A stretch of 64,000 nucleotides of DNA from an uncultured Bacillota bacterium (GTDB lineage Bacteria; Sysuimicrobiota; Sysuimicrobiia; Sysuimicrobiales; Segetimicrobiaceae). The translations under genes and the position numbers were made by a program. A model generated the notes under the pieces. The model saw only the letters and a program-made list of their open reading frames with translations, did no database searches and was not told where the DNA came from. The stretch covers positions 32,001 to 96,000 of the forward strand of contig CAWDRG010000019.1 in assembly GCA_963804645.1 (NCBI GenBank), written 5' to 3'. Below, in pieces: positions 22,595-28,048 of the stretch (position 1 is the first letter of the stretch; each line of letters starts with the position of its first letter).

Positions 22595-22670
22595 GCGCCC
22601 GTAGCTCAGAGGAGAGAGCGGCTGCCTTCTAAGCAGCGGGTCGGGGGTTCGAATCCCTCCGGGCGCGCCA
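22595..22670 (+). tRNA. tRNA-Arg(UCU)
   Basis: Acceptor stem GCGCCCG/CGGGCGC, anticodon arm GCTGC-CTTCTAA-GCAGC, GGTTCGAATCC T-loop, encoded CCA; 76 nt. Confidence 0.95.
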
Positions 22671-22713
22671 AGCTCAGATGGTCCAACCCGGAGACATAGG
22701 TGACAGTTCGTAC

Positions 22714-23895
22714 CTAAGACATGGGTAACACTTTCGGGCCGAACGGATTTTCGAGCGGTTCGAGCACGCGTGTCTCCAGATCAAAGTACCCCAAGTCATC
22801 ATCCATAAAGCTGACCAGCCAGATGTCATCATACACTTCTTTGATGCCGACGGCTTGTCCCACGAAGACTTGGCTGAAGTTGATCTTATGGTTGCCTAGA
22901 CAGATGCGACCGCACTGCGTGACCACGACGGTCTTGTCGTGGAGCGGATAATCGATCTCCGGCAAGCCCGTGTAGGGACGTGGGGAAGGGCGGTAGACTT
23001 GCGCCGGACACTGCATGTCCAGGGCTTCGTGCGGGCGTTCGTTGTTGAAGGTGTCGATAAATTTGTCAAACCGGGCCTGCTGCTGCAGGAGATTGGCCGC
23101 GGCGGGCTTGGTGGCTTCTTTCTTCAACGTGAGGTGCATCCGTTCATGACGGCCGTTCTGCTGGGGATGGCCGGGCTGGATGCGTTCGATGCCAATGCCG
23201 AGGCGTACCCACCAGACCGCCAGTCGGCTCAAGTTGAAGAGGGCGTGCGCGGACGCGAACGGGACGCCGTTGTCGCTGCGGATGTTGGCCGGGAGGCCGC
23301 GCTCCTTAGACAACCGCTCAAACCCTGTAAAGGCATAGGGTTCTTTGGTGGAGGAGAGCGCGTCACAGGCCAGCAGAAACCGGCTGGCGTGGTCGGTGAC
23401 CGTGAGCGGATAGCAGTAGCGGTGATTGCCCAGCAGGAACTCGCCTTTGTAATCGGTGCACCATACTTCGTTCGGACGGTGCCCAAGCGACAAGGGGGTG
23501 CCCTGCGCCCGACGCCGCAGGCGCCCACGACGCTCCACCAGGCCGTGGCGATCCAGCACCGCATGGATCGTGCTCTTCGCGGGGATGGGAATCCCTGCGA
23601 ACCGGCGCGTCAAGCGCTCGCGGATCTTCCGCGCCCCCCAGCTGGCGTGTTCGCGCTTCACAGTGAGGATGTAGTTCTCGACTTGAACGGGCAGTTGGTT
23701 GGCGTAGCGATACGGACGCCGGCTGCGGTCCGTGAGCCCGTGGATGCCGCATTCCTGATACCGATCGAAGAGCTTGTAACCGGTCTTGCGGGAAATCCCA
23801 AACTCTCGGCACAGTTCCGCCATCGACTCACCGGCGAGTCGCCGCGCGACAAACTGCATGCGTTCGTCCATCACCGAACACTCCCTCCAGGGCAT
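22714..23895 (-). CDS. IS481-family transposase
   Basis: MPWRECSVMDER, GISRKTGYK HTH, WCTDYKG, RSDNG, PQQNGRHER, RPHEAL. Confidence 0.95.
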   Translation of the reverse strand: MPWRECSVMDERMQFVARRLAGESMAELCREFGISRKTGYKLFDRYQECGIHGLTDRSRRPYRYANQLPVQVENYILTVKREHASWGARKIRERLTRRFAGIPIPAKSTIHAVLDRHGLVERRGRLRRRAQGTPLSLGHRPNEVWCTDYKGEFLLGNHRYCYPLTVTDHASRFLLACDALSSTKEPYAFTGFERLSKERGLPANIRSDNGVPFASAHALFNLSRLAVWWVRLGIGIERIQPGHPQQNGRHERMHLTLKKEATKPAAANLLQQQARFDKFIDTFNNERPHEALDMQCPAQVYRPSPRPYTGLPEIDYPLHDKTVVVTQCGRICLGNHKINFSQVFVGQAVGIKEVYDDIWLVSFMDDDLGYFDLETRVLEPLENPFGPKVLPMS

Positions 23896-23959
23896 CCGCG
23901 TCCCCCCCTTTAGGGGAGGAAGTGTTACCCATGTGTCCGGTACAACCTGTTACCTATGT

Positions 23960-24770
23960 GTGCAGCCCGTAAAGCCATACACTCAGTCGGTGAGAGTCCG
24001 ACCCGCGGAGTCGCCCAACTTGCCGCGGTAGTGTTGTCCGGCGTCTCGAAGGAGGTGACTCGCGAGACGGAAGCCCGGACGTACAAGTCTCGGCGGCCCG
24101 GCAGAGATATAAAGGCCGCGGTCGGTGGCCCAGGAGACGAGCGATGGATGGGGCCGCAACATGAAGTGAACACTGCAGCGTCGTTATTCAGGCCCACTCA
24201 GAGCTCCGGGAACGGAGTGCTCAGCGCCACAGTGGGAATGAGGGTGCCAAGTTTCTACATAGGGGACGAAGGCCAGTGTGGTTGCGGAAGAAGCTGGGCG
24301 TGTGCACGCAACCAGCCCTCCGGCGTAGGGGTGGCGGCAACATCCAAAGGGTGGATGGTCAAAGCGGGGAAGGGCTCTCACCCGTGAGGCCAGTGATATA
24401 ACCGACTTCACTCGGGAAGTTCACTGGTGGGGGAGAGTCTGGCGCATGAGGCCGTAGGAGCGATGATCGCTCCGATAACAAGGAGCGGGAGCAAAGGGCC
24501 TCTGGGAGCAGGCCAGCGTTGGAGAAGGAGAGGGTGCGGGTGCTGATAACGCGCTCGGGCTACCGCCAAGATCCGGACCGACGCTGTAGGCTGCAGCAAA
24601 CCAATCGCTCCCCAGGTACAGGCTGGGAAGGATCGGGAACGCTGCAACTGAGCGCGTGCTCTTCCAGCCGGATTGGGGAAAACCCGCTATCCGGATGATA
24701 GGGGGCGGGGTGGAACCGTGGTCAGGCTCCTTAACGGTAACCTGACCGGCGCGCCACCCTGCTACCCGAC
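23960..24770 (+). ncRNA. ORF-less group II intron (811 nt)
   Basis: 5' GTGCAG; domain V 24665-24697 (AGCCGGAT-TGGGGAAAACCCG-CT-ATCCGG); domain VI with bulged A at 24764 and 3' ACCCGAC; EBS1 ACATAGG (24257-24263) is complementary to the 5' exon end CCTATGT; no RT ORF. Confidence 0.85.
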
Positions 24771-24972
24771 CTCAGGTTGGAGGGATATAAACAAGGCGTA
24801 CCGCGCGGTCAGCACCCTTCGGAGGGCGCAAAAAAGCAGCGGGCGACGCGGCCTTTGGCTGATCGCATGCAGTTCGCCCAAGTGCATGTCGTTCTCGTGT
24901 GGTTCGCTAACGTCGGTCTGCGTGGTCGGTGCCGGCACCATACTGAACGCCTCTGCCAGTTTGCCCGCATTG

Positions 24973-25097
24973 ATTATGCTAAGCGGGTAGCATATTGTCA
25001 AGAATCAATGCTAGGCGGGTAGCACACTCAGTGGTGGAAAGAGGTCCACTGGGTTCACTGACAGTGGTTGACACTGATGCTAGGCGGGTAGTACGAT
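24973..25097. promoter_or_regulatory. Divergent sigma70 promoters with three palindromic operator repeats
   Basis: ATGCTA(A/G)GCGGGTAG(C/T)A at 24976, 25008 and 25077; leftward TTGACA-17-CATAAT (25001-24973); rightward TTGACA-18-TACGAT (25068-25097). Confidence 0.75.
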
Positions 25098-26866: not shown

Positions 26867-28048
26867 TCAAAACTCTGGAAGAGCGTCTAGATTGTTTGGC
26901 ACGAAATCATCAGCCACGGTTTGCAAGTACCACTGCACGACGGCCACGTTCGCGCGCCTACCATCGACCAATGTGTAGAATGTCGCAAGTGCACCGTTAA
27001 TCATCGCGACGACATCGAACTCCGGTAGCTCCCAGCGACCCTGGCTTCCCGATCCGGGGCCGCTGACGGCTTGAATGTAACGGCCATCAGCGACCTTTCT
27101 GACCGAATCGATCTGGTAATCACCGGGCGGCAAAGGAGCGGACGGCGGTGACGGGATCATGCACGCGCCCGCGGACGTCGAAAAATATGAGCTCACAGTA
27201 GTACCGTTGATGACCCCAGATGAACAGCAGACGTCACAGATCTCGTTCCAACTGCTGGAGTTTCTCGGATTCACCTGTACGGCGTCGCCATGAGGATCGG
27301 TCAACGACTCGACGAGTTCGTGCGAGAATATGAACGTCATCGTGCTCAGCGCAGCGGCATAGCTGACGTATCCATAGTTGACCTGATTGCCACCGCTGTC
27401 GGTGAAAAACGAATGCTCTCCTTGAGGCCCGCTTGGGTTGAAGCCTGGCGGCATGAAGATCATAAGGAGAGACCAGTAAACGTTATCCGGTCCAAGGTTC
27501 GGCGTATTGTAGATCGCGATCGCCTCGTTCGCGACGGTTTGAAGCGAAAACGGGTTGTTTGGCGGATTCGTTGGAATAACGAGTGGCGGTCCCACGATGT
27601 TAAATCCCCAGGTGATGTCATTGCCGCCTGAGTAGTCGGAAAGGCCGTCGAAATAGCTGTAGGTGCCAAACGTCGTTGTGGTCTTGTCTGAAAGCGCCGC
27701 GACTGAAGCGAAAATATTTCCGACCCCGGGCGATAGAGACGAGTTGGTCCACGCGCTGCCCCAGAAGACGCAGAGGACCTCGGCCCATCCGATCACATTG
27801 CCGCCGCCAACGGACACGGTGGTTCCGGCTGGGGCGTCGCAGCCACTGTGAAAGGTTGCCGCACCGCCTCGTTCGCTCGGCTGGATTGGAGCAGGATGGA
27901 GCCCCGATGCGGGTAATCGAGCGATGCCACTTGCAGATGGCAGCTGCGAGCCCCCAACTCCGGTTACGACCGCTGTCCGATAAGGTGGATGCGCCCAGGC
28001 TCTGAGTTGCCCCAGCCGCTTCTCGCGGGATGGCATGTTCGTAGGCAT
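26867..28048 (-). CDS. Hypothetical protein with a zincin-like HExxE domain and a C-terminal DUF3892-like domain (start uncertain)
   Basis: SHELVESLTDP..EICDVC; Pro-rich linker; C-terminus FYTLVDGRRANV..YLQTVAD...NNLDALPEF. Confidence 0.7.
   Translation of the reverse strand: MPTNMPSREKRLGQLRAWAHPPYRTAVVTGVGGSQLPSASGIARLPASGLHPAPIQPSERGGAATFHSGCDAPAGTTVSVGGGNVIGWAEVLCVFWGSAWTNSSLSPGVGNIFASVAALSDKTTTTFGTYSYFDGLSDYSGGNDITWGFNIVGPPLVIPTNPPNNPFSLQTVANEAIAIYNTPNLGPDNVYWSLLMIFMPPGFNPSGPQGEHSFFTDSGGNQVNYGYVSYAAALSTMTFIFSHELVESLTDPHGDAVQVNPRNSSSWNEICDVCCSSGVINGTTVSSYFSTSAGACMIPSPPSAPLPPGDYQIDSVRKVADGRYIQAVSGPGSGSQGRWELPEFDVVAMINGALATFYTLVDGRRANVAVVQWYLQTVADDFVPNNLDALPEF

Follow-up and report, generated by a model that had tools for sequence, protein, structure and literature searches.

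In Sinorhizobium meliloti GR4, the group II intron RmInt2 is found within the inverted repeats of the insertion sequence (IS) ISRm17. A 4-bp pairing between exon-binding site 2 of the intron (EBS2) and intron-binding site 2 of the exon (IBS2) suffices in this system, and a donor without its open reading frame (RmInt2-ΔORF) retrohomed on a chimaeric target with the intron-encoded protein (IEP) of RmInt1; lagging-strand targets have been discussed as well (PMC4615759). Here we analyse an 811-nt group II intron without an open reading frame (ORF) on contig CAWDRG010000019.1 of an uncultured Bacillota bacterium. The stretch analysed, the window, comprises 64,000 nt, and positions are window positions unless another contig is named. 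The intron occupies the left terminal inverted repeat (IRL) of an IS481-like element. We consider it likely that the sequence at 23960-24770 is a non-autonomous intron with IIB-type target recognition, which retrohomed into the IRL and was mobilised in trans.

RmInt1 is said to be autonomous and to have its target inside the transposase gene of its IS, not in a terminal repeat. A likeness to the present locus is offered by the pair RmInt1/ISRm2011-2, where an intron with an endonuclease-less (En-less) IEP homes into a multicopy IS as a "parasite of a parasite" (PMC4615759, PMC1802570). The original prediction for the window, made from the sequence alone, had used the same words; they are correct, although such a case has already been described with RmInt2 in ISRm17 (PMC4615759). 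RmInt2 resembles the window intron in having IS inverted repeats as natural targets, in recognition by EBS1, EBS2 and EBS3, in its 4-bp EBS2 and, on the side of RmInt2, in the trans-mobilisation of a ΔORF form. RmInt2 encodes its own IEP and has putative sites in both IS repeats, whereas the window intron is ORF-less and found in the left repeat only; moreover, it runs antisense to the transposase gene and resides in an IS of another family (IS481-like). In Thermosynechococcus elongatus, the subject of a 2010 study by Mohr et al., ORF-less introns reportedly use resident IEPs in trans, and the ORF-less copies are said to be close derivatives of co-resident ORF-containing introns. There, too, ORF-less introns have multiplied in a genome that also holds introns encoding a reverse transcriptase (RT) (PMC2882425). 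In the present genome, in contrast, identity to the nearest resident RT-encoding intron is 52% in domain 1 (D1), and the ORF-less state is common to relatives down to 73% identity.

Insertion site, ribozyme fold and exon recognition

The coordinates of the original prediction were all borne out by direct reading of the sequence. The intron lies 13 bp inside the IRL of an IS of 1293 bp (length without the intron). Its deletion in silico yields TGTTACCTATGT joined to CTCAGGTTGGA, in agreement with the reverse complement of the IS right end (IRR). The uninterrupted junction, ...ACCTATGT followed by CTCAGG, was found in seven intron-free IRLs from six related genomes, with point differences in some of them; two of the seven are identical to the window across the 27 nt upstream of the junction. 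Since these intron-free IRLs carry the intact junction, the exact insertion point is confirmed; the presence of intron-free IS copies in related genomes shows that the IS predates the arrival of the intron. IS matches were present in 20 of the 61 genomes searched, the present one included.

At gathering thresholds, Rfam models gave two matches only over the whole window, a tRNA and RF02003 (group-II-D1D4-4), the latter at 23984-24164 (58.2 bits, gathering score 49, E 3.4e-10). A consensus structure calculated with RNAalifold from the sequences of 11 relatives (10 distinct rows) has the canonical layout of six domains (D1-D6). Cells of its 231 pairs are paired in 97.8%, compared with 36-44% when the partners were slid by 1-3 columns, and compensatory changes occur in 82 of the 231 pairs, compared with 7-15 in the slid controls. 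None of 500 shuffles reached any of the observed pairing measures. The structure was predicted from the same sequences on which it is tested and is thereby somewhat favoured; the margin is large. The helices of D5 and D6 are 100% paired in all 10 distinct rows and contain three and two compensatory pairs, respectively. Read directly from the sequence, D5 has a lower stem of 9 bp that includes AGC, a bulged CU and an upper stem of 4 bp, which is capped by a 5-nt loop instead of a GNRA tetraloop; RNAalifold pairs eight of the nine lower-stem positions and leaves the triad G unpaired. A24764 is unpaired in helix 35 and invariant in all 11 aligned sequences. Group II introns have the terminal consensus GUGYG...AY. 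The window intron starts with GUGCA, which agrees with four of the five 5' positions of this consensus as commonly quoted, and ends with AC. The γ-γ' contact is seen as covariation (C/G or U/A) of its last nucleotide with position 485, which lies between D2 and D3. An RT is not encoded, the longest internal ORF (143 aa) being without a Pfam match and D4 measuring only ~158 nt. With the RF02003 match and the covarying six-domain fold, the prediction of an ORF-less group II intron stands.

The motif ACATAGG, proposed as EBS1, indeed forms part of a terminal hairpin loop of D1 in the consensus fold and is complementary to the 5' exon end CCTATGT. By chance, any particular 7-mer would occur ~0.05 times on one strand of 811 nt. 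In each of the nine lineages, 6-7 of the 7 positions of the homologous loop pair with the lineage's own 5' exon, the mean for non-cognate exons being 3.3 of 7. The EBS1/IBS1 pairs are ACATAGG/CCTATGT, TTAGAGT/ACTCTAA, CTCAGAC/GTCTGAG, CTATTTC/GAAATAG, ATAGCGC/GCGCTAT, CCCTATT/AATAGGG and GCAGAAA/TTTCTGC, plus two near-duplicates. EBS2 of the window intron is CAGG, pairing over 4 bp with CCTG at exon positions -14 to -11. The EBS2 loop (intron ~226-234) pairs with exon positions ~-16 to -9 in most lineages, several of these pairs having been read by eye from the loops and exons; for some lineages, automated best matching had chosen other stretches. Intron position 369 (G24328) is complementary to exon position +1 in 17 of 18 copies (G/C, U/A or C/G) and is the sole alignment column that passes this test, identifying it as EBS3; the single exception is a tandem copy directly followed by another intron. 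As read from these pairings, exon recognition is of the IIB type, with EBS3 in D1 and not as a δ position beside EBS1.

An unoccupied perfect target was not found in the present genome. Five empty sites, four outer right-end repeats and one inner repeat, retain a perfect 7-nt IBS1 and C at +1. The original prediction had pointed to the motif at the other end of the window IS, and this site is indeed empty, as are all four outer IRR copies that carry the motif; the motif alone does not define a target. All five look-alikes have A instead of C at position -14 of IBS2, weakening the 4-bp EBS2 pairing, and one occupied site has T at -14, still allowing a G·U pair. In the 3' exon, the four right-end repeats differ at +4 and the inner repeat at +3. 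Because the right end stays empty despite its identical IBS1, EBS1 alone is insufficient to define the target; EBS2/IBS2 and EBS3 contribute, and protein contacts probably do so as well. A combination of RNA pairing and protein contacts that discriminates between the left and the right end would fit these differences, which are correlative.

Copies, relatives and candidate helper proteins

Five full-length copies of the intron, 99.5-100% identical, free of indels and differing at four positions, are present in the genome. In addition, there is one fragment, and a paralogue of 75% identity occupies an unrelated site (C4:158167-158962). The flanks of the five close copies agree from about -35 to +7. 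Of these five, three are situated in complete IS copies, one in an IRL stub ~4.3 kb from an IS variant of 91% identity, with an IS110-type element and a serine-recombinase gene in between, and one in a 35-nt IRL relic on contig C15 without an IS body. Apart from the 91% variant, IS copies are 99.4-100% identical. The intron of the window IS and that of the stub near the 91% IS both have A736; likewise, A160 links the intron in the 35-nt relic to one that lies in a 99% IS. Because private substitutions are thus common to copies in different contexts, intron relationships cut across IS relationships, which argues for retrohoming or at least for transfer independent of whole-IS transposition. At the stub (G000 C11:12445-18047, L066), the IS110-family element, with ORFs matching DEDD_Tnp_IS110 and Transposase_20, is itself split by the gene of a 686-aa large serine recombinase. 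A near-identical serine recombinase adjoins the C15 intron copy.

Among 60 relative genomes, a near-full-length homologue was found in G006 only (73% identity). Metagenome relatives were collected with a 22-nt word from D3, which retrieved 27 contigs, all matching the intron by BLASTN. Fifteen of them hold full-length copies (797-812 nt, 73-99% identity), and three contigs at 99% (L195, L196 and L207) have the same IS and the same junction. All eight close copies with readable flanks, five from the genome and three from metagenomes, lie in the IS left end. The proposed specialisation on IS481-like ends holds for these copies, with the restriction that only the IRL is used; it does not extend to diverged relatives (73-81% identity), which were found at unrelated sites with matching EBS1 changes. 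To judge from these flanks, IS-end specialisation is a trait of the present sublineage and not of the whole family. A 17-mer scan of a collection of genome contigs gave at least 114 loci, and none of the matches listed was a true relative by BLASTN, the word being too short for so large a collection.

Two further observations concern the family. On L204, two intron copies are arranged head to tail without an exon in between, and the metagenome contigs L190, L191, L198, L201, L208 and L212 contain several incomplete copies whose order is rearranged. Such arrangements suggest that introns of the family homed into sites already occupied or into one another. One ORF-less branch (L210, L189, L188, L199, L213 and L061, from metagenomes and G006) starts with UUGCAG and ends with GU instead of AC. 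Here, the last base covaries with J2/3, so that γ-γ' becomes A-U, and the first and the penultimate base change jointly from G1/A to U1/G. Because members of this branch occupy different targets with matching EBS1 and EBS3, the unusual U1...G termini seem compatible with mobility.

That an RT could be supplied in trans, as the original prediction required, is supported by 12 open RVT_1 frames of six types (406-465 aa) in the present genome. Among one representative per type, five of six match Pfam RVT_1 and GIIM and one matches RVT_1 only. At E<=0.01, none of the six types matched an endonuclease domain, and the sequence beyond the maturase domain is short. Most resident RT-encoding introns also match RF02003. 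Nine RT matches were found in G006, which alone among the other genomes contains a family member; the best of them is 48% identical to the 460-aa RT. L211 and L192 were considered as RT-encoding members of the family and rejected; their match ends at D3, no RT is encoded, and they are truncated copies. The EBS1-type loop of the 460-aa-RT intron mismatched the assumed 5' boundary and this comparison was dropped. A twintron-like nesting was observed twice (G000 C15:384663-388650 and C5:192652-196644; L027, L022, L032, L041-L044): the 460-aa-RT intron lies inside the maturase-coding part of the 406-aa-RT intron, leaving GIIM positions 3-38, and two successive D5/D6 matches follow downstream. RF02003 matches of 90.9 and 85.4 bits at C9:703523-703660 and C22:4445-4581 have no RT match nearby and may mark further group II introns from another lineage, either ORF-less or truncated.

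Proposed mechanism and competing explanations

In the proposed mechanism, transcription of the intron would proceed along the plus strand, out of the IS and opposite to the transposase gene, and the transcript would fold into the six-domain ribozyme. An RT/maturase from a resident RT-encoding group II intron would bind in trans, aid splicing and form a ribonucleoprotein (RNP). The RNP would locate its DNA target by pairing of EBS2 CAGG with IBS2 CCTG (-14 to -11), of EBS1 ACATAGG with IBS1 CCTATGT (-7 to -1) and of EBS3 G369 with C+1, and reverse splicing would take place between TATGT and CTCAG. En-less IEPs rely on replication-fork primers. Because the resident RT types have no endonuclease domain match, cDNA synthesis would probably be primed from a nascent strand at a replication fork.

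Several findings weigh against a mobile intron of this kind. The D5/D6 model RF00029 gave no match on 23800-24900 at E<=10, and its 11 matches in a genome scan at E<=1 included none of the five intron copies. The original prediction had listed missing matches to the D5/D6 models among the results that would speak against it, and in this part the Rfam check failed, whereas the D1-D4 model did match. We take the failure of RF00029 as a limit of the model and not as evidence against the intron, since covariation supports the fold. Variation of the D5 triad, the pentaloop and the long D6 probably explain it. The present family shows that ORF-less bacterial introns with an atypical D5 escape searches with D5 models, a caveat already raised in a 2015 review (PMC4424553). 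In the window copy and one other copy, U736A (A24695) places a G·A at the wobble position of the catalytic triad; G·U is present in the other three of the five copies in the genome, as it is in several relatives from metagenomes, the 99% one among them. The window copy may be impaired by this change. The resident 460-aa-RT intron likewise has G·A at this position of D5. Across the family, the triad partner varies (alignment A3, columns 718-751) among G·U, G·A, A·C and A opposite a purine with an extra base, and the triad reads AAC instead of AGC in five of 11 aligned sequences. An A·C pair is isosteric with G·U when protonated.

Runs that contain the stretch are labelled as peat, soil, bioreactor and unspecified metagenomes, and six of them are RNA libraries; expression was judged from Logan contigs only, in which uncovered parts are uninformative. 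Contigs from the RNA libraries run from 23914 or 23947 into the intron unspliced, DNA carry-over being possible, and a spliced product was not seen among the Logan contigs. Contigs that join TATGT directly to CTCAGGCCGCTCA are only 90-95% alike and probably derive from intron-free IS copies of other strains. A sigma-70-like promoter was not found upstream on the plus strand (scan of 23600-24900). The search for an RT-encoding relative, suggested along with the original prediction, did find RT genes, but none that is closely related: D1 identity amounts to 52% for the 460-aa-RT intron, 50% for the 442-aa-RT intron and 42-45% for the others. Low-stringency BLASTN of the intron against the genome revealed nothing beyond its own family, and a comparison of D4 with the regions upstream of the six RT genes gave chance-level local-alignment scores (17-19) and no IEP-binding sequence in common. 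On the metagenome contigs of the family an RT was demonstrable in 0 of 27. By these comparisons, no resident RT is clearly cognate.

Finally, each of the three complete IS copies that contain the intron has a separate 3-bp duplication at its borders (GAT in the window, TCA and ACG), and joint movement of IS and intron is possible. An intron that entered one IS a single time, is itself no longer mobile and multiplied by transposition or duplication of IS and intron as a 2.1-kb unit would account for these duplications, for the similarly young age of IS and intron copies (99.4-100% and 99.5-100% identity) and for the failure to find a helper RT. We nevertheless regard such a passenger as improbable: a 99.9%-identical intron lies in the IRL stub beside the 91% IS variant and another in the 35-nt relic, private substitutions of the intron do not track the relatedness of the IS, and the wider family clearly retargets by EBS changes. 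In addition, a repeat split by 811 bp at 13 bp from its tip would be unlikely to make a good transposase substrate. Spread at the DNA level, in which intron-bearing IS ends would convert intron-less ones through gene conversion or homologous recombination without an RNA intermediate, appears more doubtful still. IS copies do offer more than 1 kb of near-identical homology on one side, and all IRLs of the genome are occupied. On the 3' side, however, the homology is only 13 bp long, and the C15 relic and the C11 stub provide just ~35-50 nt upstream. IRR and inner-repeat pseudo-sites were never converted in spite of strong local similarity, and the choice of targets follows the EBS2 and EBS3 pairings.

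A decaying relic, or an intron that only splices, would be compatible with U736A in the window copy, which would then be catalytically dead, the element having no present function, and with the missing RF00029 match, promoter-like site and spliced RNA. This, too, we hold to be very unlikely. A736 is present at two loci and was either copied after the change arose or arose twice, the same G·A occurs in the 460-aa-RT intron, and no indels separate the five copies, whose other domains are intact. A non-autonomous intron that retrohomes into the IRL with the help of an RT supplied in trans remains the reading that we favour.

The host insertion sequence and the significance of the intron

Features of the locus are compiled in the table.

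Table. Intron, host IS and adjoining features in the window
Feature	Position	Strand	Remarks
tRNA-Arg(TCT)	22595..22670	+	ARAGORN; Rfam tRNA 69.6 bits; IS 9 bp downstream
Target-site duplication GAT (3 bp), left copy	22677..22679		
IS right end (IRR)	22680..22730		outer 25-nt repeat and inner repeat; no intron
IBS1-identical motif, unoccupied	22694..22700	-	CCTATGT on minus, ACATAGG on plus strand; IBS2 equivalent ACTG vs CCTG; +4 C vs A
IS481-like DDE transposase, 393 aa	22714..23895	-	Pfam rve, rve_3, HTH_32, LZ_Tnp_IS481
5' exon, inner part of IRL	23925..23959	+	IBS2 CCTG 23946-23949; IBS1 CCTATGT 23953-23959
ORF-less group II intron, 811 nt	23960..24770	+	GTGCAG at 23960 to ACCCGAC at 24770; antisense to transposase
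D1	23966..24368 (intron 7-409)	+	EBS2 CAGG 24189-24192; EBS1 hairpin 24246-24273; EBS1 24257-24263; EBS3 G24328
D2	24369-24443 (intron 410-484)	+	consensus fold
J2/3 nucleotide G24444	24444 (intron 485)	+	covaries with last intron nucleotide (γ-γ')
D3	24445-24504 (intron 486-545)	+	consensus fold
D4, ~158 nt, without ORF	24505..24662 (intron 546-703)	+	consensus fold
D5	24665..24697 (intron 706-738)	+	AGC triad, 2-nt bulge, 5-nt GAAAA loop
D6, extended	24701..24767 (intron 742-808)	+	bulged A24764, 7 nt from 3' splice site
3' exon, outermost 13 bp of IRL	24771..24783	+	begins CTCAGGTTGGAGG; IBS3 = C24771
Target-site duplication GAT (3 bp), right copy	24784..24786		

The transposase scored 217.1 bits against the NCBIfam IS481 model NF033577 (cut-off 224), the best of five IS models (IS3 model: 106), and 30.8 against Pfam LZ_Tnp_IS481 (cut-off 22.2), with rve also matched. 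The IS termini, set by comparison of copies, are GGTCCA (22680) and TGGAGG (24783). Both ends are imperfect, ~50 bp long and composed of two sub-repeats each. Transposition by the left end, with its repeat split 13 bp from the tip, is probably impaired. The outermost nucleotides of the IRL occur in two forms: CTCAGGyTGGAGG, which resembles the right-end tip, in three copies of the present genome, and a CTCAGGyCGsTCA-like form in two other copies of this genome, in the metagenome copies and in all relatives (L196, L207, L216 and L220 were compared). The window IS lies just past tRNA-Arg, and the flanks of two other genome copies resemble tRNA 3' ends (…TGGCGCGCCC, reverse strand), as do most right-end flanks in related genomes (L214, L216, L217, L221, L234 and L238-L241). 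Insertion of the IS appears to be site-specific, at ~9-10 bp downstream of tRNA genes. A 393-aa ORF at 26867-28048 (minus strand) was considered as a second IS copy and rejected, having no Pfam or NCBIfam match despite its equal length. Just outside the IS, at 24976-25094, there are three direct copies of an 18-nt motif (ATGCTAGGCGGGTAGCAC-like) at a spacing of 32 and 69 nt, which may be operator- or iteron-like sites.

Homing into IS repeats, as by RmInt2 in ISRm17, and trans-mobilised ORF-less introns are both already published. What the present intron adds beyond textbook knowledge is modest: occupancy of the left end only, an orientation antisense to the transposase gene, an atypical D5, an ORF-less state that extends to relatives of 73% identity, and no close RT-encoding relative found. 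It is a cleanly resolved natural case of a non-autonomous group II intron living on the end repeat of an IS, and its EBS1, EBS2, EBS3 and γ-γ' code can be read from covariation among natural relatives. Occupied IRLs and the five empty look-alikes serve as natural controls, which point to -14 (IBS2) and +3 or +4 as discriminators. Group II intron biology as currently understood is unaffected. Tentatively, we also entertain a wider reading, a serious possibility that we stop short of calling probable. The intron may belong to one branch of an old lineage that has long been RT-less, analogous to short interspersed nuclear elements (SINEs), that borrows the RT/maturases of distant introns, retargets by EBS1, EBS2 and EBS3 and tolerates variants of the catalytic core. 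This reading rests on members that all measure ~800 nt, on identities down to 73%, on at least seven target classes seen and on a D5 missed by the standard D5/D6 model; the core variants concerned are G·A, A·C and A-purine at the D5 triad wobble and the U1...G(n-1) pair of termini. If it is true, surveys of bacteria would under-count such lineages, and it would be no rule that an intron depends on a closely related cognate IEP.

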